A DNA stretch of 64,000 bases from an uncultured Bacilli bacterium (lineage in GTDB: Bacteria; Bacillota_I; Bacilli_A; RF39; UBA660), in the NCBI GenBank assembly GCA_947589495.1, contig CANQAK010000001.1:13017-77016 (forward strand), given 5' to 3'. A program made the translations under genes and the position numbers. Below, piece after piece: positions 21,843-39,097 of this stretch. The notes below the pieces were generated by a model that saw nothing but the letters and a program-made list of their open reading frames with translations, searched no databases and was not told where the DNA came from. Positions within the stretch are counted from its first letter, which is position 1; every line of letters starts with the position of its first letter.

Positions 21843-22538
21843 ATGTTTTTAAATTTAATTGCTATTATAAAAAATATGATATTTTTTACAGGATCATATG
21901 GAAATAATGTTTTTCCACCACCATTAAGTGCTGAAGAAGAAAATAAATATGTTGATGAAATGTTAAATGGTAGTAATGAAGCTAGAAGTATTTTAATTGA
22001 ACATAATTTAAGATTAGTAGCCCATATAGTTAAAAAATTTGATAGCAAAAATACTGATACTGATGATTTAATAAGTATAGGTACTATTGGGCTTATTAAA
22101 GGAATTGATACTTATAAAAAAACTCCTAAAGTAAAAATTACTACGTATGCTGCAAGATGCATACAAAATGAAATTCTAATGTATTATAGAAGTAATAAAA
22201 AAAATCAATTTACTGTTTCTTTAAATGATTCAATTGGTTATGATAAAGAAGGAAATGAAATTAATTTAGTTGATTTATTAGAGGATAAAAAAGAAGATAT
22301 TTTAGATACAATTCAAATTAAAGATAATATTAATCTTTTAAATAAATATTTAAAAAAATTAAATGAACGGGAAAAAGAAATTATTATTAAAAGATATGGA
22401 CTTAATAATGAAAAAGATTTAACCCAAAAAGAGATTGCTGAATCATTAGGTATTTCAAGAAGTTATGTATCAAGAATAGAAAAAAGAGCTTTAACTAAAA
22501 TATTAAGAGAATTTATTAAAAATAAAAATAGTTTATAA
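21843..22538 (+). CDS. sigK: Sporulation sigma factor pro-sigma-K (pro-sequence present, gene uninterrupted)
   Basis: 'NNVFPPPLSAEEENKYV...LIEHNLRLVAHIVKKF...DLISIGTIGLIKGI...TYAARCIQNEILMYYRS...LGISRSYVSRIEKRALTKI' closely matches B. subtilis SigK including the pro-peptide region. Confidence 0.85.
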   Translation: MFLNLIAIIKNMIFFTGSYGNNVFPPPLSAEEENKYVDEMLNGSNEARSILIEHNLRLVAHIVKKFDSKNTDTDDLISIGTIGLIKGIDTYKKTPKVKITTYAARCIQNEILMYYRSNKKNQFTVSLNDSIGYDKEGNEINLVDLLEDKKEDILDTIQIKDNINLLNKYLKKLNEREKEIIIKRYGLNNEKDLTQKEIAESLGISRSYVSRIEKRALTKILREFIKNKNSL

Positions 22539-22560
22539 AAAAACTCCCTAGGGAGTTTAG
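22538..22560. terminator. Bidirectional intrinsic terminator shared by sigK (+) and hsp20 (-)
   Basis: Perfect 18-nt palindrome AAACTCCCTAGGGAGTTT flanked by A and T runs. Confidence 0.7.
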
Positions 22561-22973
22561 TCTATTTCTATATATTTCTTTTCTGGTAATTCTTTAGTTT
22601 CTTCTTTTTTAGGAACTTCTAATTTTAAAGTACCATTTTTAAATGATGCTTTAATATCTTCGCTTTCAATATTATCTCCAACATAGAAACTTCTTGAACA
22701 TTCACCAAAATATCTTTCTCTTTTTACAAATTTTCCTTCTTTACTTTCTTCATGTTTAGAATCCATTGAAGCAGTAATATTTAAGTAACCATTTTCAACA
22801 TCAACTTTGATGTTTTCTTTTTCATACCCTGGTAAATCAATAAAAATATCATAATTATTTTTATTTTCTTTAATATCAGTACGCATTACTTTACTTTCAT
22901 GAACATCAAAGAATGGATCTTTAAATAACTCCTCCCATAAATCAAAACTATTTTTTCTTGGTATCATCATCAT
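22557..22973 (-). CDS. Hsp20/alpha-crystallin family small heat-shock protein
   Basis: 'DIFIDLPGYEKENIKVDVENGYLNITAS...' alpha-crystallin domain. The real start is most likely the ATG triplet 'MMMIPRK' at 22973, which has an AAAGGAAG RBS. The ORF-track start at 23078 sits inside the promoter. Confidence 0.85.
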   Translation of the reverse strand: MMMIPRKNSFDLWEELFKDPFFDVHESKVMRTDIKENKNNYDIFIDLPGYEKENIKVDVENGYLNITASMDSKHEESKEGKFVKRERYFGECSRSFYVGDNIESEDIKASFKNGTLKLEVPKKEETKELPEKKYIEID

Positions 22974-23069
22974 AAAATCATTCTTCCTTTCTTTCAACTT
23001 GTGTTGATGCCCAAAAGGGTTAGCACATATAATTATAATACCCATAAGATGCATTTCTATGCCTCTTAC

Positions 23070-23120
23070 AATTATCATTATAGCACAATTATTAGCAATT
23101 GCAAGCTTTAAGTGCTAATT
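23070..23120 (-). promoter_or_regulatory. Sigma-A-type promoter (TTGCAA-16-TGcTATAAT) overlapping a CIRCE-like inverted repeat TTAGCACTT-N9-AATTGCTAA upstream of hsp20
   Basis: The minus strand reads TTAGCACTTAAAGCTTGCAATTGCTAATAATTGTGCTATAATG. Compare with the CIRCE consensus TTAGCACTC-N9-GAGTGCTAA. Confidence 0.5.
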
Positions 23121-23893: not shown

Positions 23894-24790
23894 TTACTTT
23901 TTACCATTTAAATAACTTTTAATATCCATCTCTTTTTTGCCAACTGGTTTAATTTTATCAAAATAAATTATTCCATTTAAACAACCTATTCCTAAACTAT
24001 CTTTACTTTTATAAATTTTATTTATTTCACTTTTACCTAATTCATAATGAGCTTTAATAATTTTAATTTCTTCTCCATAAAGATTGGTTTTAGTTAGTGG
24101 TGAGGGGCTAAAAGCCCTAATTTTATTATAAACTTTTTTAACATCTTCCGTAAAATCTAATTCTTCCATTTCTCTTTCAATCATAGGAGCATATGTAGCT
24201 TTTTCATCATCTTGTTTAATTCTTTTAATATTCCCATTTACTAAATTTTCTAAATTTTTTTCTAACAGATTAGCTCCCATAACACTTAATTTATCATAAA
24301 TAGTTCCTATATCATCAAAATCCTCTATTTTACAAGAATCTGTATCAATTATATCTCCCGTATCCATAAATTCATCCATATACATAAGTGTTATACCAGT
24401 TTCTTCTTCTCCATTAATAATTGCCCATTGCATAGGAGCAGCCCCTCTATATTTGGGAAGAAGAGATGCATGAATATTTATGCATCCATACTTTGGAGCA
24501 TCGATAAGTTCTTTGGGAATAATTTTTCCATAAGCACAAGTAATAATAATATCGGGATTGTATTTTAATACTTCTTCATATTCTTTTTTAATAGAATCTG
24601 GTGTAAAAACAGGAATATTATATTCCATAGCTAATTTTTTAACTGGTGATGGTGTTAATACTTTTTTTCTACCTACAATAGCATCTTTTTTAGTAACTAC
24701 TAAAACAACATTAGTTTTATCTATTAAAACTTGTAACGCTTTTAAAGCAAATTCTGGAGTACCCATAAATACAACTTTTAAATCTTTCAT
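23894..24790 (-). CDS. fmt: Methionyl-tRNA formyltransferase
   Basis: 'VVFMGTPEFALKALQVL' N-terminus and a formyltransferase core. An AGGAG RBS is present. Confidence 0.9.
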   Translation of the reverse strand: MKDLKVVFMGTPEFALKALQVLIDKTNVVLVVTKKDAIVGRKKVLTPSPVKKLAMEYNIPVFTPDSIKKEYEEVLKYNPDIIITCAYGKIIPKELIDAPKYGCINIHASLLPKYRGAAPMQWAIINGEEETGITLMYMDEFMDTGDIIDTDSCKIEDFDDIGTIYDKLSVMGANLLEKNLENLVNGNIKRIKQDDEKATYAPMIEREMEELDFTEDVKKVYNKIRAFSPSPLTKTNLYGEEIKIIKAHYELGKSEINKIYKSKDSLGIGCLNGIIYFDKIKPVGKKEMDIKSYLNGKK

Positions 24791-24799
24791 AATTATCTC

Positions 24800-25015
24800 C
24801 TAATCTATTAATTCTAAATATACATCTTCTATTAAATCTTTTTTTATTTGTAAACTTGCAAGAAGCGCGAAAGCTACTTCTACATCCATTCTTAAAAAAC
24901 AATCATCTCTATTTAATATTTTTTTTATTAATTTTTGTTTTTCTAATTCTTTATCATTATCTTTATTTAACATAATTAATGAATCATTTATACTTCTTAA
25001 TTTATTTAATATCAT
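24800..25015 (-). CDS. Small hypothetical protein (71 aa), translationally coupled (ATGA overlap) to the upstream TGc-like gene
   Basis: Start and stop overlap at 25012-25015 (plus strand 'tcat'). Confidence 0.4.
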   Translation of the reverse strand: MILNKLRSINDSLIMLNKDNDKELEKQKLIKKILNRDDCFLRMDVEVAFALLASLQIKKDLIEDVYLELID

Positions 25016-26661
25016 CTTGTAACTCCTTTTAAATTAATACCAGGTATTTCATACACATCACTAACCATAAAATATTCATTTTCTACAAATCTTCTTTGTA
25101 ATTCATTTTTATCTATTTCCATACATGTTCCATCAGTTTCCAATAAATAATAAAAATTATCTTCATTATTATTATAATCTATATAATTAATTGTAAAAAC
25201 CACACTTAGTATTCTATCTCTCTCTTCATTAATATTATCTGTTAATCTTACTAAAGATAATTTAACATTTTTCTTTTGTTCACTTAAAGAAAAAATTGTT
25301 TTATAGTTTTTAATTAAATTACCTAAAATATCCATATTAAATAAACCTTTTTTCTTAACTTTTTTTATTAATAAACTAAATTTTTCCTCGATACTCATAA
25401 AAGGAATATCACAAAGTAATTTTAAACTTTCTATAGCACTATTAAATTCATCAATTTTTTCTTCTCTTAAAACAATTTCATAAACATCATCAACTATATC
25501 TGTAAATTCTTTTTGAGTATGACGATTTTTATTAAAACACACTAAGCCATCTAAAGAATCTCCAAATTTAGATGCAACTAAATCACCAAAGAAAATAGAT
25601 GTAACGGAGTCTGCTCTTACTAAATATTTACCACAACGAAAATTAAGATAAGCATGACTTCCACCAAAATCCATAACAAATGATTGTTCTGTTTCAAAGT
25701 TAATACCAAGTTCACTTAAAAATTTCCCATAAATAGCATTAAATTCATAACATACCACACTGTTATTAGAAGGACTTATTTCTGAAACATGTTTTAAATT
25801 TTCATGTTTAACTGCTACTTTACCTTTTTGACCAAACGCATAAAATTCTTCATCATAAGTTAAAATGCGACATAGTTTTATATAAATATAAATAGCTTTT
25901 TCTAAATTATTTAAATCATTTGGCATTTGCGATAAAACATACTCTCTTAATTCATCATTAATAACAACTTTAGAAACATTTATATCTAATGTTTGTTCAA
26001 AAGTATTTAAAGATTCAAAATCTACAAGTTTTTGATTTTCAAGAGCTTGCTTTTTAATTTTCATTTCATAAGGTATTAAATAATTATCAAAAATTTTATT
26101 TCTTAAGAAAAATAAATATATCATATAAACAAAATATTCTTTAGGCATATTTGCAATATTTTTTACAGAGCGATTAGTAAAGATAGCTTCTAATTTGGAA
26201 TAATTCATCTCCATATAATAAATAATTGTATTAAAAGGTACAGAATATATTTTACCATCAATTCGCGTTTGAAATATTGTATCTTTATACTTTTCTTTAA
26301 AACTTTCATAAGTAATTGAATTTTCTAATTTATTAAATATTGTCATTAATTTTTCATTAAAAGAAATGGTTGATGATTCTTTTAGTAATTTTAATGCATC
26401 ATATATATTTTTCTTAGTTAGTCTTATTACTCCTACAACACCATTATCTTTAGTATTTTTAATATTTAACTCAGGAAATTCATCATTTAATATTCTTTCT
26501 GTATATAAATAATAATCTTCTCTCATAAAAAGATCTATTAACAATTTTTCGCTTATTTCTGTATTTCCAATGCTTACTTTTTTATCTTGTTCATAATTTA
26601 AATATTCTTTCTCATCAATATATAAATTATACATTTTATTTTTTTTATTAAATTGTTCCAA
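25012..26661 (-). CDS. Cytoplasmic hypothetical protein with a transglutaminase-like (TGc) putative cysteine-protease core
   Basis: 'VVCYEFNAIYGKFLSELGINFE...GGSHAYLNFRCGKYLVRAD' fits the Cys-His-Asp TGc signature. TTG start with an AAGGAGG RBS. No signal peptide. Confidence 0.5.
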   Translation of the reverse strand: MEQFNKKNKMYNLYIDEKEYLNYEQDKKVSIGNTEISEKLLIDLFMREDYYLYTERILNDEFPELNIKNTKDNGVVGVIRLTKKNIYDALKLLKESSTISFNEKLMTIFNKLENSITYESFKEKYKDTIFQTRIDGKIYSVPFNTIIYYMEMNYSKLEAIFTNRSVKNIANMPKEYFVYMIYLFFLRNKIFDNYLIPYEMKIKKQALENQKLVDFESLNTFEQTLDINVSKVVINDELREYVLSQMPNDLNNLEKAIYIYIKLCRILTYDEEFYAFGQKGKVAVKHENLKHVSEISPSNNSVVCYEFNAIYGKFLSELGINFETEQSFVMDFGGSHAYLNFRCGKYLVRADSVTSIFFGDLVASKFGDSLDGLVCFNKNRHTQKEFTDIVDDVYEIVLREEKIDEFNSAIESLKLLCDIPFMSIEEKFSLLIKKVKKKGLFNMDILGNLIKNYKTIFSLSEQKKNVKLSLVRLTDNINEERDRILSVVFTINYIDYNNNEDNFYYLLETDGTCMEIDKNELQRRFVENEYFMVSDVYEIPGINLKGVTR

Positions 26662-26734
26662 AATAAGCCTCCTTATCTTTATTTAATTATATCATTACTA
26701 AAAATGAGAAGCAAAATAAATGCATCCCATTTTG

Positions 26735-29700
26735 TCAATCTTGTGTTATTTTGTATTCTTCATTTATTCTTTTTAAAATTAATTCATTTTCTTTGATTGA
26801 GTTATTTTTACTATAATTAACTACAAAATTTTTAGCTAAATCAATTACCTCTAGTTCACTAATATTTAAAGATAGAGCTATTTTTTCATTTGAATAATTA
26901 TAAATATATTTTAAAATGCCTACAATAATTTCTTTAGGAACACTTTTTAAAAGGGTTGGAATATTTTCTAAAGTTAAAATGTTTATTATATCATTTAAAT
27001 ATTCATATGCATTTTGTTCATTTCTAATTTTTAGTAACATTACTTTCATTTTTTTAATTATATAATAGAACTTTTTCCTTTCATAAGGTTCTAAATTAGC
27101 TTGTTCATATTTTTTCTTAATAATTTCTTTTTCTTCTTCACTTAACTCTTTTAAAAGAATATTTTCTTCTTCTAAAGTACAATCTAATAAGCCTTGAAGC
27201 ATTTGTTCACTTTTAGAATTTTTTATTAATGGTTTAATAATATCAATAATACTTATTCCTTTTATAAAAGAATCATTTATCTTATTAAGGGCATTACTTT
27301 TAATCTTTAAATATTTTTTAACAGTTAATTTTAAAATATCTACATTATTTAATAATGATTCACAATTTTTATCAGTACAATTAATTTCATTCCAAATAAC
27401 TAAAGTTTCAATGTTATTTAAACCAATTTCTTTAGTACAATCTAAAAATTCTTTTGGTAATGTTTTTAATAATTCTTCATAATATAATTCTATTTTTATA
27501 TAAAAACGATACTTATATAAATTTTGACTAATCTTTTTAATTAATGGTTTCCATGTATTATTTAAAAATTCATCACTAAACTTTTCTTTGTTAGAGTCAT
27601 TAATGACTCTTTCTAATAAAGATTTTTCTTCTTCGATTAAAAAACTATAAATATAATTTTCTTCTTCTTTACTACAATTTATTATGTCATTAAAATCATG
27701 TATAATATGACCAAATAATAAAATATCTTTTATATCTTTAGGTATAATTAATTCTCTATTATAAAATTCTTTTATTCTTTTTAATAAATCATCTATTTTA
27801 TTTTGAACACAATAATTATTTTCATTTATTTTTTTAACTAAATTAAATCTCCAACAAAATAATAATATTTCATCTTTAGTTAACCCTGCTCGTGAAAGAA
27901 AATCTATATTTTCTTTCTTAACATTACTTAATAATTCCTCTACTAAAGATTTTTCAATAGAAATATTTCTCTTTATTTTTTCTTCTTCTAAAATTTCTTT
28001 AATATTTTGAGGTATTTTTAAATTAGTTTGAGATTCTTTATCTAATAATTTATTAATTGCACTTTCTAAATACTTTTTAATATTATAATTAGAAATATTT
28101 AATCCTTTAGATATACTTGATAAATTTCTTTTTATTCCATCAACAAGGCCAAAATTATAGCAAAAAACATTTATTTCTATTTCATTTAATCCAGCTTCAC
28201 TTAAAAATTCTTGTTCTTCTAAATTATAAATTTTTTCTACTTTTTTCTTCTTTTCTTTCTCTAAAATAATTCTTTTTAATTCTTCTGGAACTTGTCTTTC
28301 AGATTTTAATTGTTCACTAACTGTATATGATACTCTTAATAAATATTGTTTTACAGTTGTTTCTTTAATATGAAATAATTCACAAATTTCTTCACTAGAT
28401 TTTACATCACCATATAATCCATTAGCTAAACCAAATATTACCATAGCATTTTTATTTAAAATCATTTGTTCACAAAATTCTTTTATTTCAGGTGATAACT
28501 TTTCAATATAATATAAATATTTATTTTCTTTTTTAGATATTTTTATTTGTAGTTTACTAATCATATTATAAAATTCTTGTTCTTCATTTTCACTTAATGT
28601 CTCTTTTTCATAATATGTTTCAATAATACTTTTCTCTTCATTTGTTAAATTTTGAAGAAGATATTGAAATTGTTTATCTGAACAATTTATCAATTCTTTC
28701 AATTTCTTTTGTTTTAATTTCTTTTCATTAACCTGAGCTTTTCTTACCTGTTTTTGTATTTCTTTTTCTTTGTAATTAGGATGTTTTTTAGATTCCTCCA
28801 TTAAAATGTCTTTAATTTTACTAGGTAAATTTATTTTATCTTGTACTTCTAAAAGTTTAATTATGGAACTTTCTATATATTTACGAACATAATAATCGGT
28901 AATACATAATTCTGATTTTATACTATTAATACTTTTTATGTTACCATCAATTAAACCAAATCTATTTTTAAAAACTTTAATTTCTATATCTGTTAAACCC
29001 GCATCTTTGAAAATATCTGTATTATCAAATTCATTAAATTTTTCTTTTCTAATGTCTTCTAAAATTATAGACATCTTTTCAAATAATTGTGAAAATTTAA
29101 TTTGTGATTTTTTATCCCATTTTGCACAAGAATTAGAGTCACCATTACGATATTTAATAAATAAATATTCTTCTTTACTTAATTTTTTATAAATTTCTTG
29201 TTCTTCTTCTAAAGTGCAATCTAATAATTCAGAAATACTTTTTATTAATTTACCATGAATTAAAATAATAATTAATTCCTTTGGTAATTTAATTCCTTCA
29301 TAAAAAGCTTCTTTTAATTTATCATAAACTATTTTTAAATCTTTTGTAATAGTAACACTTGAATAATTTAAATCTAAAGCAAGTTCTCTTACAGTTTCCT
29401 TTGAATAATTACTTAAACCATTTTTTACACAGAATAATAAAGTTTGTCTTTCATTTATTCCAAGAGTCTTAAATAATTCAACATATTTAGGATCAATAAC
29501 TAGTGGAGGTTTTTCTACTTCACTTTCTTTTCTTAATTTAGTTAACATTCTTCTCATTTTATTAACTAATACTTTAAAATCACTTGTATGACTATCATCC
29601 CATTTTCCACTTATTAATTGATTATCAGTACTATCACCCCAGCGAATATTTATTAATTCTAAATCAAAATTATCCAATCTTTTTAAAATTTCATTTTCTT

Positions 29701-32287
29701 CTTCTTTGCTACAATTTAATAATTCACATAAAGATTTAATTTTAATTATTTTATTTTTTCCTAAAATAATTTTTTGATAAATTTCATCAGGGACTCTAAT
29801 ACCATCTTTTTCAGACTCATTTATTTTATTTAAAGCACTTTCTTGTTCTTTTTTTAAAAAATGAGTTGTGGTATGCATAATTTGGGCAGCAGCATAAGCA
29901 AAATGAACTAAATTACCGTTTAATCCATATAGTAATTCTAAAGTTTGAATTTCTTTTTCTGTTAAATTAATATTTTGAAAATATTTTTCAATTGAATTTT
30001 TAGGAACTTCCTCTTTTTTTAATGAAGATAAATTTTTACTTATCTTTTTTTCTAAAGATGTAGGTATTTTTATTCCTAATTTTCTAGCTTCTTCAATTTT
30101 TAATAAAGCTTTAAATTCATAACTAGCTACATCATCTTCACTCAATTGAAGATCTAGTGCTACTAGTTTTATATCATTTTCTTGTTCTTTACCTAATCCA
30201 TATAATAATTCTAAAATTTTAACTTCTTCTAAAGTTAAATTAATTTTCTTAAAGAATGTTATATAATAATTTGGTAAATCATATAAATTAAAAACTTGGT
30301 CTTTAAAATTTTTTCTACAATGTTCAAACATCATTAAAAAATCTTGATAATATCTTACTTTTTCTAAATAATCATTATTACTATACGCTAAAACATCTTT
30401 TTGAGCTTTCTCGATAGCTTCTTCAATTTTTTTGTTATTTTCTAAAATAATTTTATCTACTAATTCATAGCTTACATTAAATTCTTTACTTATTTTTACT
30501 AAAGATACTGGACTTTTACCATCTAATCCATATCTTTTTGTAGCCATTTTCATAGCATCTTTATTAATATCAGCATCAAATACTATTTCATTTTTACTTA
30601 TCTTCTTTTCAATTTCTTTTTTAATATTTTTAGTTTCATCACTAAGATTTTTACTATTTAATTTTTTTAAAGCATTTTTTTCAATTCTTCTAATTGTTTC
30701 TTCAGAAACTCTTAAAAGTTTCCCTGCTTCTTCTTCACTATAAACATGCCCGTCACTAAGACCTCTTAATAAAAATAAAACCTTTTTTTCTTGTTCTGAT
30801 AAATTAGCTTGCTCAGTTAAATTTTCATACTGATATGTAAATTTTTGACGAGTACTTTCTTTTATTGAACTATTAGATTCATAATATTCTCTTTTTTTTC
30901 CAATACTTTCTATATTTTCATATTTTCGTCTTAATTTACTAATACCTTTATTTTCTATTTGTCTTATTCTTTCTCTAGTAAGTTTATATTTTGAACCAAT
31001 TTCTTCTAAAGTATAAACTTTACCATCAAATAGTCCATGTCTCAAACTTAAAATTTCTTTTTCTCTTTGGGTTAATTTAGCATCTTCAAACATTCCTTTA
31101 ATATAATCAGGTAATAACATTTTATAAGCATCTTCTTCAATATTTGTATTATTATCAGGAATAAAATCACCAATTTCTGAATCTTCTGAATCTCCAACTT
31201 TAACATTCATACTTAAAGTACTATCTTGAATATTTAAAACTTCTTTAACAACCTCTATAGGCCACCCTAAATCATTTGCTAAATCTTCTTCTGTAGGATT
31301 AGCAATTCCTAATCTTAATAAGTTTAATTGACTATTTTTAAGTTTAACTATTTTTTCATGCATATGAACAGGTATTCTAATTGTTCTACCTTCATCAGCT
31401 ATACTTCTAGTAATTGCTTGTCTTATCCACCAAATAGCATAAGTAGAAAACTTAGTCCCTTTTTTATAATCAAACTTTTCTGCTGCTTTTAATAAACCTT
31501 CATTACCATTTTGAATTAAATCAAGAAAATCTACTCCTCTTCCATTATATTTTCTAGCTATGCTTACTACTAATCTTAAATTATGTTCAACAAGTTTATT
31601 AATTGCTTTTTTATTTCCTTTACTAATTTCAATGGCAAGTTCTCTTTCTTCTTCTTTACTTAAAAGAGGAATTTCTCCCATTTCTTTTAAATAGGTTTTA
31701 ACATCATCTGATGAATAATAACTATCATTTTTCACATCCATAGATAAATCATCAACAATTTCAATATCATTTAAAGATGCGTAAGCTTCAATAAAACAAA
31801 CTTCTATTTCATTAGAAAATAAATTATTTAAAGAATTGCTTTCTATTACTCCATTTGAAAACTTACTATTAATAACATTTTTAATGCAATTATTTAATTT
31901 ATTATTAGTTTTTATAACATCTATAATAACATCAATTGAAGGATCATAATCTACATCACTTAGAAAAAGAGATAAAGATTTTAAATCTTTTAAAGAATCA
32001 TTTTTAAAATTTTGTTCAATATATTTTACTATTATATTCATTGCATAATTTGCTGAATTCATTAATTCTAAAATATATTCATTAATTTTATTATCTAATT
32101 CGCTTTCAAAATAAGCTTCACTTATTTCTCTATCTAAATTTTGAATATCTTCTAAAATATTATTAACTAAATTATTAAATACATCTGTAGGTATATCAAA
32201 AAAATTATATTTCTTTTTTATTTTTTCAATAATATCTTTAAAATACTTTTTTAAATCATCAAGGCTCATTTCTTTAAATTTATTCAT
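26735..32287 (-). CDS. Giant (1850 aa) sigma-70-family protein: a complete group-1-like sigma core (regions 1.2-4) followed by about ten degenerate tandem region-3.2/region-4-like HTH modules
   Basis: aa ~190-455 carry '[21 protein letters not shown]' (r1.2), '[78 protein letters not shown]' (r2), '[13 protein letters not shown]' (r3.2) and '[50 protein letters not shown]' (r4). Later copies include '[48 protein letters not shown]', '[15 protein letters not shown]', '[15 protein letters not shown]', '[19 protein letters not shown]...', '[18 protein letters not shown]...' and '[15 protein letters not shown]'. It has its own AGGAGGG RBS and a TGgTATTAT extended -10. Confidence 0.85.
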
Positions 32288-37195: not shown

Positions 37196-39097
37196 TTATT
37201 TATCTCTTTTAACTAAGAATATAATTAAACCTTTTAAAATATTTTTTCCTTCTTCAGTAATTATTAATTCATCAATATCCATATTTACTTCATCAAATAA
37301 ATTTTCTAAAAAACATATAGCATAATCATAACTTCCACTTTTAATTAATAATTCTCTAATTTTATATAATTCATTATCTGTAATATATTTTTTACCATAT
37401 AATTTTAAAAATTCATCTTTATAAGAAGTATTCATTATATATGTATATAATATTGTTTGTTTAAATTCTTCTATATCACTTACATTGGATTTTCCAATAT
37501 CTTTTGAAGAGGAAAAAATACCCATTAAATCATCTTTTAATTGAAAAATAATTCCTATTTTATTTAAAACTTTTTCTAAAGATTCATCTTTATTTTTTCC
37601 TCCTAGTAAGTATCCTAAAATAAATGGCCCCGTTATTGTATACCAACTAGTTTTTAATTCATATATATCTAAAATATCTTGTTCTTTAGTTTTTCTATAA
37701 TTATATTTACTTAAAAATGGTAATGTTACATCAATTATTTCTCCTTTAATAGTTTTTATTACTATATCATTAAAGAAAGTTAATATACTACTTAATCTTG
37801 GATTTTCTTTATAATTTGTTAATATTAATTTATTAGCTTCATAAAAACCTAAATCCCCCATACATATTCCTAGTGAGTTAGCTAGTTTTAAAACATCTTG
37901 TTGATAATCTTTATTATTTTCTACATTTAAATATTTTTGACATATTCTTCTTGGAATTGTTTGTTTACCTCTTCTTTCACGAGCATTATCTATTATATCA
38001 TCATGAATTAAAATAGATGTTTGAAATAGTTCATAAGCATACGCTAAAGATAAATAATCTTTATTTTGTCCACTAGCTAAATATTCTCCTAAAGCAATTA
38101 AAATACCTCTTATATATTTACCATCTTTATTTAAATCTTTCAAATATTCAATTAAATTTTTTACTATATCATTATCAAGATCATTATTTAAACCATTATT
38201 AATTAATTCTTGTCCACTTACTAATTTTTCTTTATGAATTTTATAAAATAATAGAAAACTCAATAAATACTTATAATTATAAATTTCTTTTAAAGGAGTA
38301 TTAAGTCCTCCCGTTAAAATAAAATTCATTTTATTAGTATAATTACTATTTAATATAAATTTAATAAATTCTTCTTCATTATTAAAAAAGTAACTTTCTT
38401 TTCCTTTAATATTATTTTGAATTACTCTATTATTTTCATTATTATCCCCAATGATAAAAATAACATCACTATCACTAAAATCTTCATTATTAAAATAAAT
38501 ATTTTTTTTAAATTCACATTCATTTTTAATTATTTCTAAATCACTTATATAATTATTAGCTATAAAATTTTCTAATTGTTTTTCTAAATCCAAACTAGTA
38601 TTTGTTAAAATAATTACTTTTTTTCTATTATTATTTAACTTAGAAAATTCTTCTTCTCTACTTAAAATTATTCCATTATAATCACAATAACTATTTAAAA
38701 TATTTATTTCTTTTTGTGTATTATTTCCCACTAAAAAAATATCATAACCATCATTATATTTTGCTAAAACTTTTTCTTGTAATACTATATAAAATTCACA
38801 TGTATTATTTATATATTCAATATTATTAAGTTGTAAAAATTTAAGTTCTTCTTTTTTAATTCCCACAGGGCCAATAATAAAAATTCCATCACTACTTAAT
38901 TCATTTAAATCATTTATTAATTCTATTCCTAAATCTTTAAACTCTCTTAAAACTGTTTTATTATCAATAATATTTTGATATATATAAATATTTTTTGGTT
39001 CTTCTTTGGCCATTTCTCTTTCGTAAATTTCATAAATTTTACTAAATGTTTCATTAATTTTTTCACATGTTCCACAATATTTTGCTACTTTTATCAT
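37196..39097 (-). CDS. Fusion protein: N-terminal IspH/LytB-like domain (apparently degenerate) plus C-terminal trans-polyprenyl diphosphate synthase
   Basis: C-terminal FARM 'ILIHDDIIDNARERRGKQT' and SARM 'FQLKDDLMG'. The N-terminal ~320 aa align by eye with IspH: 'IYIYQNIIDN' vs 'IYVRHEVVHN', 'NNTCEFYIV' vs 'DATCPLVTKV', 'ILTNTSLD' vs 'MTQTTLS', 'IIGDNNENN' vs 'VVGSKNSSNSN', 'ILTGGLNTP' vs 'VTAGASAP'. Confidence 0.7.
   Translation of the reverse strand: MIKVAKYCGTCEKINETFSKIYEIYEREMAKEEPKNIYIYQNIIDNKTVLREFKDLGIELINDLNELSSDGIFIIGPVGIKKEELKFLQLNNIEYINNTCEFYIVLQEKVLAKYNDGYDIFLVGNNTQKEINILNSYCDYNGIILSREEEFSKLNNNRKKVIILTNTSLDLEKQLENFIANNYISDLEIIKNECEFKKNIYFNNEDFSDSDVIFIIGDNNENNRVIQNNIKGKESYFFNNEEEFIKFILNSNYTNKMNFILTGGLNTPLKEIYNYKYLLSFLLFYKIHKEKLVSGQELINNGLNNDLDNDIVKNLIEYLKDLNKDGKYIRGILIALGEYLASGQNKDYLSLAYAYELFQTSILIHDDIIDNARERRGKQTIPRRICQKYLNVENNKDYQQDVLKLANSLGICMGDLGFYEANKLILTNYKENPRLSSILTFFNDIVIKTIKGEIIDVTLPFLSKYNYRKTKEQDILDIYELKTSWYTITGPFILGYLLGGKNKDESLEKVLNKIGIIFQLKDDLMGIFSSSKDIGKSNVSDIEEFKQTILYTYIMNTSYKDEFLKLYGKKYITDNELYKIRELLIKSGSYDYAICFLENLFDEVNMDIDELIITEEGKNILKGLIIFLVKRDK

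Follow-up and report, generated by a model that had tools for sequence, protein, structure and literature searches.

The two-gene cassette between the giant sigma gene and fmt

The DNA analysed here (the window, 64,000 nucleotides (nt) from an uncultured Bacilli bacterium) carries on its minus strand, at 24800..26694, two overlapping genes which encode proteins of 549 and 71 amino acids (aa) and are located between the gene of a giant, 1850-aa sigma-70-family protein and fmt. The pair probably constitutes a self-contained two-gene operon with its own promoter, coding for a thiol enzyme of the papain/transglutaminase-like (TGc)/arylamine N-acetyltransferase (NAT) fold and for its small subunit. 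An initial annotation of the locus had regarded the large product as a putative TGc-like cysteine protease, co-expressed with the sigma protein and involved in its maturation or degradation. The features of the cassette are as follows:

25012..26661, minus strand: coding sequence of the 549-aa open reading frame (ORF), TTG start; product of 64.9 kDa, pI 5.3; founding member of an unannotated family of ~570 aa
26668..26674, minus strand: ribosome-binding site (RBS) AAGGAGG of the 549-aa gene, 6 nt upstream of TTG, as read from the sequence
26062..26661, minus strand: N-terminal module, aa ~1-200; two beta-hairpin-plus-helix units in the secondary structure of the model
25447..25989, minus strand: predicted catalytic core, aa 225-405; papain-like/TGc/NAT-like fold according to the core model, Foldseek and hhalign
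25750..25752, minus strand: codon of the predicted nucleophile, Cys304, which opens helix 304-317; motif VVC[YF]EFN
25654..25656, minus strand: codon of His336, the predicted general base, which aligns with His107 of NhoA
25609..25611, minus strand: codon of Asp351, the third residue of the predicted triad, which follows the His at the NAT-like distance of 15 residues
25015..25446, minus strand: C-terminal alpha+beta domain, aa 406-549, with a conserved terminal IPGI motif
24800..25015, minus strand: coding sequence of the 71-aa ORF; product of 8.4 kDa, pI 5.1; its start overlaps the stop of the 549-aa gene
25023..25026, minus strand: RBS GGAG of the 71-aa ORF, likewise read from the sequence, within the 3' end of the 549-aa gene, 7 nt before ATG

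The layout given in the initial annotation proved accurate: 73 nt separate the sigma gene from the 549-aa gene, the stop codon of the latter overlaps the start of the 71-aa ORF (ATGA), another 9 nt lead to fmt, and the segments VVCYEFNAIYG (aa 302-312), GINFE (aa 319-323) and SHAYLNF (aa 335-341), as well as D351, are all present in the translated product. The 549-aa protein was also rightly described as cytoplasmic, since it is acidic and contains no hydrophobic segment (the maximum 19-residue Kyte-Doolittle mean is 0.96). Rfam and tRNA scans of the region were empty. Recoding of TGA (genetic code 4) was considered and dropped, as the neighbouring genes all read cleanly with table 11.

Family, triad and fold of the 549-aa protein and its small partner

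Neither of the two proteins has a match in Pfam or NCBIfam (none at Pfam E≤1 in the case of the 549-aa protein), and searches against PADLOC and PHROGs gave no significant match for either of them or for three homologs. Similarly, sequence and profile searches of the PDB with the 549-aa family returned nothing significant. The 549-aa protein has 169 word-indexed homologs. The exhaustive search led to 626 cluster representatives at E≤1e-3, and to 277 when the limit was set at E≤1e-30; almost all are 540-590 aa long, and none carries a Pfam domain. When a profile of the core domain was run against a set of 5.8 billion proteins, family members alone were returned, with no annotated protein bridging to a known family. 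The match to Transglut_core by which the initial annotation had proposed to verify its assignment was obtained neither for the window protein (E≤1) nor for 30 members of the large family, in which no other model of the TGc clan was detected at E≤10 either; Acetyltransf_2 (PF00797), the Pfam model of NATs, matched 0 of the 30 at the same threshold.

The Cys-His-Asp arrangement pointed out in the initial annotation is conserved far beyond chance. In an alignment of 30 sequences the invariant positions are C304, E306, F307, H336, D351, D360 and K365. Across 291 family sequences, which share just ~30-37% identity with the window protein, the residues of the triad are retained in 291/291 (C304), 287/287 (H336) and 286/287 (D351) cases, and D360 and K365 are likewise invariant in the large family. 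A triad nearly invariant at such a level of identity indicates strong purifying selection on Cys-His-Asp.

To assign the fold, AlphaFold2 models were built of the full-length protein from the family alignment (predicted local distance difference test, pLDDT, 86.3; predicted TM-score, pTM, 0.83) and of residues 225-405 (pLDDT 88.4, pTM 0.88). In the models C304 opens helix 304-317, H336 precedes strand 339-343 and D351 follows strand 346-350, which is the arrangement of a TGc-type triad (order Cys-His-Asp, Cys at a helix N-terminus, His and Asp by successive strands). A Foldseek search of the PDB with the full-length model placed NATs on top (prob 0.93-0.99, E 0.03-0.3), with vasohibin-SVBP and Rad4/XPC at lower ranks. 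When the core model was used as the query, the top ~45 PDB matches came almost exclusively from a single superfamily: NATs 4guz, 1e2t, 4nv7 and 1w4t (prob 0.96-0.98, TMq 0.40-0.48), but also TglA of S. pyogenes (9crn), transglutaminase (TGase) 4xz7, GdmF, vasohibin-SVBP, the putative TGc proteases 3isr and 3kd4, and Rad4/XPC. The solved TGc domains 9crn, 4xz7, 3isr and 3kd4 match the core weakly (prob 0.35-0.97, TMq 0.33-0.40, E 0.05-0.8). In an independent library of viral structures (BFVD) a NAT was again the top match (E 1.9e-3).

Profile comparisons point in the same direction. The best, non-significant PDB match of the core profile falls on the catalytic-Cys motif of GdmF (vCyeFnaiy..eLG versus VCYELNRLF..ELG), and in an hhalign comparison with E. 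coli NhoA the same Cys motif was aligned. The hhalign comparison of the 287-sequence core profile with an 11-sequence NAT alignment resulted in a probability of 66.5% over 46 columns (pairwise E 5e-5), with Cys304 opposite Cys69 and His336 opposite His107 of NhoA and a His-to-Asp spacing of 15 in both. Pfam clan Peptidase_CA unites NATs, transglutaminases and papain-like proteases in a single superfamily (PMC10318531). The core fold and the triad are those of this papain-like superfamily (CL0125; SCOP d.3.1), the scores being individually weak. No recognisable relatives were found for the N-terminal module (aa ~1-200), and Foldseek gave no confident structural match for the C-terminal domain (aa 406-549).

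The models thus support a place for the 549-aa protein in the papain-like/TGc/NAT superfamily, and at this level the assignment made in the initial annotation holds, being backed by the triad, the models and hhalign. The term "TGc cysteine protease" is nevertheless over-specific, because the nearest structural relatives are N-acetyltransferases and not proteases. The protein lies outside both Transglut_core and the NAT family as these are now defined, and represents a new family which is somewhat closer to NATs.

The coupled small ORF, already noticed in the initial annotation, is real and co-conserved: in 74 of 87 loci its homolog comes immediately after the large gene, as shown both by inspection of the ORFs and by a hidden Markov model (HMM), and in at least 38 loci the two genes overlap by 4 nt. 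The small-protein family comprises 323 database members, and each of the 120 homologs listed is a standalone protein, 65-79 aa in length and free of annotation or fusion. Near-invariant positions are mostly hydrophobic (I30, L34, F40, Y49, L52, L55, Y66, L69), while Cys39 is 85% conserved. A Pfam search with 28 members of this family gave nothing significant; short borderline matches were seen for one member to RNA_pol_Rpb5_C (E 0.089) and for another to Rho_N (E 0.009).

Three other identities were considered for the small protein. An acyl-carrier-like or thioester carrier was rejected, as there is no conserved Ser and Cys39 is conserved at 85% only, and a precursor of a ribosomally synthesised and post-translationally modified peptide was rejected because conservation extends along the whole length, leaving no variable core. 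A similarity to the archaeal RNA polymerase subunit H/Rpo5 covers 21 residues (aa 42-62, E 0.02-0.04) and is too short to use. This stretch is the sole PDB match of the small-protein profile, which is curious given the sigma neighbour, yet uninterpretable.

Several further observations concern the architecture and distribution of the two families. A conserved [D/N]P-x-IPGI motif (window 25015-25050, aa ~538-549; P540 ≥90% conserved, G541 invariant in 30 sequences) ends the large protein, immediately ahead of the stretch shared with the small ORF, and could be a docking or autoregulatory tail. At L100:3359-5289, on a 546-kb contig, two ORFs that meet at the module boundary take the place of the large gene. 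The first, of 189 aa, corresponds to family residues ~1-180 (prob 99.7%) and the second, of 354 aa, to residues ~207-549; next comes a 75-aa partner, which overlaps by 4 nt as is usual. The databases also hold many forms of the large protein of about 300-350 aa, and the N-terminal module seems to be separable. Tandem copies of the large gene occur at L066:8225-11741 and L080:7951-11656, and in the latter pair the small ORF follows the upstream copy only.

The hosts of the family are metagenome-assembled genomes of uncultured low-GC gut Bacilli (for example Ca. Coprovivens, Ca. Aphodocola, CAG:582, "Tenericutes" UMGS bins). The pair is also kept in a genome of 50% GC: a 205-kb contig labelled Candidatus Saccharibacteria (L046, JAFWSJ010000015.1), with ~50% GC throughout, encodes a family member of 630 aa and, immediately behind it, a partner of 72 aa (prob 99.1%), which means either that the family reaches beyond low-GC Bacilli or that the pair was transferred. 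Several low-GC loci are labelled Muribaculaceae or Phocaeicola, and these contigs look mislabelled or mis-binned.

Transcription and genomic neighbourhood of the cassette

The sequences upstream of the cassette and the flanking genes include the following features:

26702..26732, minus strand: terminator-like hairpin directly past the TGA stop of the sigma gene, consisting of an A-tract, an 8+3 bp stem (4 G-C pairs) and a U-run
26709..26714, minus strand: weak -35-like hexamer TTGCTT, predicted 17 nt upstream of TATAAT, 3/6 consensus positions
26686..26694, minus strand: extended -10 element TGATATAAT, 33 nt before the TTG start
26735..32287, minus strand: sigma-70-family gene, 1850 aa, the upstream neighbour (context, outside the cassette)
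23894..24790, minus strand: fmt, 9 nt downstream of the 71-aa ORF (context, outside the cassette); its RBS AGGAG (window 24791-24803) overlaps the stop codon of the 71-aa ORF

Of 83 non-redundant loci, 39 have an extended -10 element (TGnTAnAAT) at a distance of 22-45 nt ahead of the large gene's start codon. Control windows gave 1-5 such elements and shuffled sequences 2.1 ± 1.4. In the family loci the element often comes after a clear terminator that belongs to the preceding gene. The window keeps this element at -33, past the hairpin that follows the sigma stop. The initial annotation stated that the sigma gene and the 549-aa gene are separated without a terminator, and indeed a consensus/pattern scan of the minus strand reported none. 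Folding, however, shows a terminator-like hairpin at 26732..26702, with an 11-bp stem followed by UUUUU (-12 kcal/mol, z = -3.4; equalled by 1 of 200 shuffles), which was missed by the pattern scan because of an internal mismatch. Given the conserved extended -10 and the hairpin after the sigma stop, the cassette is best read as a putative transcription unit of its own, of the housekeeping type. A sporulation-type promoter was set aside, the conserved element being a housekeeping extended -10.

The neighbourhood survey covered 86 related loci with flanks of up to 10 kb. A sigma gene is adjacent to the cassette in 0/86 of these, a match to the tail of the giant sigma occurs in 0/86, fmt lies nearby in 0/86, and no third neighbour gene is conserved among them. 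A sigma core is encoded within 10 kb in four loci (L001, L048, L057 and L073), in three of them on the opposite strand: the protein is of the sporulation type and 218 aa long in L001, a normal 443-aa RpoD in L048, and an extended protein of ~921 aa in L073, where the gene lies on the opposite strand ~8 kb from the cassette. The gene order of the window recurs in two other assemblies, which belong to the same species, and on no other contigs. That the cassette adjoins the giant sigma gene is peculiar to this genome, and the co-conservation of sigma, TGc-like gene and small ORF which the initial annotation had suggested looking for does not exist in these loci, an outcome that the annotation itself had named as refuting its proposal. 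A literature search found nothing relevant on S. pyogenes TglA or on links between TGc proteins and sigma factors.

A few observations on the wider surroundings may be added. Sigma-70 proteins of related genomes range from the normal 443 aa to 921 aa, so that C-terminal extension of sigma seems to be variable within the lineage, the 1850-aa version being extreme. In the window, the genes for isoleucyl-tRNA synthetase (IleRS), sigma, the 549-aa and 71-aa proteins, fmt and the next gene form a tightly packed co-directional run. A 231-aa sigma factor of the sporulation type (SigK/SigE-like by sequence) is encoded at 21843-22538 on the plus strand, adjoining polA, and an Hsp20-family gene occupies 22557-23078. 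Spore genes (spoVA, yutH, cse60) are found near the cassette in related loci and, together with the 231-aa sigma factor, they indicate a spore-forming lineage. Finally, the 633-aa ORF at 37196-39097 (minus strand) has a LytB/IspH domain at aa 2-269 and a polyprenyl synthetase domain at aa 313-579 and is an apparent fusion of two isoprenoid-pathway enzymes.

Possible function, rival explanations and known systems

The best-supported account of the large protein is that of a catalyst acting through a thiol acyl-enzyme on a cytoplasmic amide or thioester, with the 8-kDa protein as its stoichiometric subunit. Of the three modules of this cytoplasmic protein, the central one (aa ~225-405) would hold the predicted Cys304-His336-Asp351 triad. 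His336, oriented by Asp351, would deprotonate Cys304, and the resulting thiolate would attack an amide or thioester carbonyl to give an acyl-enzyme intermediate; N299 and N300, just before the Cys, are candidate oxyanion-hole residues. The intermediate could then be resolved either by water, as in a peptidase or amidase, or by an amine, resulting in acyl transfer. On a rough division of the possibilities, hydrolysis comes first, with somewhat less than an even chance, acyl transfer follows, and some other reaction is the least probable of the three. The 71-aa helical protein, being translationally coupled, would be made in a roughly 1:1 ratio with the enzyme and is most likely a bound subunit, a cofactor or a regulator, as SVBP is for vasohibin. 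The operon would be transcribed from its own housekeeping-type extended -10 promoter and would sit between the giant sigma gene and fmt by happenstance in this genome.

Several points weigh against this account. Since no structural match reached E<1e-3 (TM-scores are ≤0.48 and the root-mean-square deviation is large), the fold call is based on many consistent weak matches and the triad rather than on any single strong one. The large family goes unrecognised by every curated HMM, and the hhalign probability to NATs is only 66%. The small gene is missing from 13 of the 87 loci, in at least 6 separate clusters, all with an intact triad, so that the partner is usual but not obligatory in cis. The promoter and the terminator are predictions made from sequence, the hairpin is modest, and read-through from the sigma gene may occur.

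The same read-through would be welcome to the proposal of the initial annotation, in which a TGc cysteine protease is co-expressed with the giant sigma and matures this polyprotein-like protein or degrades it, in analogy to pro-sigma-E/K processing. The cassette does lie on the same strand, 73 nt downstream of the sigma gene, in an order repeated in both of the other assemblies of the species, and the superfamily does include proteases. However, sigma cores lie within 10 kb of the cassette in just 4/86 loci and are never adjacent, the tail is found nowhere, L048 carries the cassette with a normal RpoD nearby, and the cassette owns a conserved promoter. In addition, the known pro-sigma proteases are membrane enzymes, whereas the 549-aa protein is soluble, and its nearest structural relatives are acyltransferases. 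Sigma maturation or degradation by this protein therefore appears very improbable, and the cassette is not evidence for sigma processing. A mobile toxin-antitoxin or defence cassette, in which the thiol enzyme would be toxic and the small protein would neutralise it, is hardly more credible. Such an overlapping two-gene module with neighbours varying between genomes would fit, and so would the copy in L006 that adjoins a prophage integrase and the tandem duplicates in L066 and L080; yet PADLOC and PHROGs gave no matches, the flanks and the promoter are of the housekeeping type, the family is spread over the whole lineage at ~30-37% identity and mostly in single copy, and the loci that keep an intact-triad enzyme without the small gene would be lethal if the enzyme were a toxin.

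A more serious competitor, still a doubtful one, is a NAT-like acyltransferase or amide synthase which depends on acyl-CoA or an acyl carrier and acts on a small molecule, and not a peptidase. NATs and the amide synthase GdmF are the top structural matches in the PDB, a viral NAT is on top in BFVD, the family and NATs share the C-[YF]-E-x-N...LG motif and a distance of 15 residues from His to Asp, and the many invariant polar residues near the site suggest a defined ligand pocket. On the other hand, Acetyltransf_2 fails to detect the family even at E≤10, the Cys is preceded by NNxVVC in the family versus GGxC in NhoA, the protein is twice the length of a NAT with different flanking modules, and TGases, vasohibins and putative TGc proteases score almost equal to NATs. 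That the protein is a catalytically inert scaffold retaining a TGc-like fold, in the manner of Rad4/XPC or menin, is as improbable as sigma processing: Rad4/XPC is among the structural matches and the large additional N- and C-terminal modules could be binding domains, but inactive proteins of this fold have lost the triad, which here is invariant in ~290 sequences that are ~30-37% identical.

Whichever reaction is carried out, two protein families absent from Pfam, NCBIfam, PADLOC and PHROGs, the large one comprising hundreds of clusters, are worth curating. Both have been conserved by an uncultured and little-studied lineage of gut Bacilli with small genomes, in which one related circular genome (JBAMOY010000001.1) has just 1.2 Mb, and genes retained there are likely to matter. 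The large family gains a fold class and named candidate catalytic residues. With the notion of a dedicated giant-sigma protease removed, work on the sigma protein should not presume that its 549-aa neighbour is the processing enzyme.

Among the known systems, pro-sigma processing by SpoIIGA (pro-sigma-E) and SpoIVFB (pro-sigma-K) resembles the window locus solely in the idea of a protease gene beside a sigma gene. SpoIIGA is a membrane aspartic protease, SpoIVFB a membrane metalloprotease, and the linkage of spoIIGA to sigE is conserved, whereas the window protein is soluble, of another catalytic class, and linked to sigma in 0/86 loci. With TGc proteases and TGases (PF01841; 3ISR, 3KD4, 4XZ7, TglA 9CRN) the large protein shares the superfamily fold, the order of the triad and weak structural matches; it differs from them in the lack of an HMM match in any member and in its domain architecture, and their structures score slightly below those of NATs.

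The likeness to NATs and amide synthases (PF00797; 4GUZ, 1E2T, E. coli NhoA, GdmF) is closer and includes the Cys-His-Asp triad, the Cys of which stands at the N-terminus of a helix, the local C-[YF]-E-x-N...LG motif, the His-to-Asp spacing of 15, the cytoplasmic location and the best structural matches (prob 0.96-0.98). Unlike NATs, which have ~280 aa in three domains, the members of the large family have ~570 aa (549 in the window) with unrelated N- and C-terminal modules, are missed by the Pfam model, lack GGxC before the Cys and possess a conserved small partner gene.

The vasohibin-SVBP tubulin carboxypeptidase, the structures of which recur among the matches, is likewise a TGc-fold thiol enzyme with a small helical partner (SVBP ~66 aa, here 71 aa). 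The pairing here is one of genetic coupling (adjacency in 74/87 loci, 4-nt overlap, no fusions), and a complex of the two proteins is putative. Vasohibin differs in being eukaryotic, no sequence similarity was found between the small proteins, and 15% of the loci have no partner. It is possible, if rather doubtful, that the pair is a bacterial counterpart of vasohibin-SVBP, that is, a cytoplasmic thiol enzyme of the TGc/NAT fold which needs a co-translated 8-kDa helical subunit for its folding or activity and performs a housekeeping modification of a protein or metabolite peculiar to reduced-genome gut Bacilli; the tail of the giant sigma as the substrate of such a pair is conceivable, but very improbable. 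The superfamily of the enzyme is well known, and the cassette is not categorically new; what is new is a lineage-restricted family with a three-module architecture and a conserved small partner.

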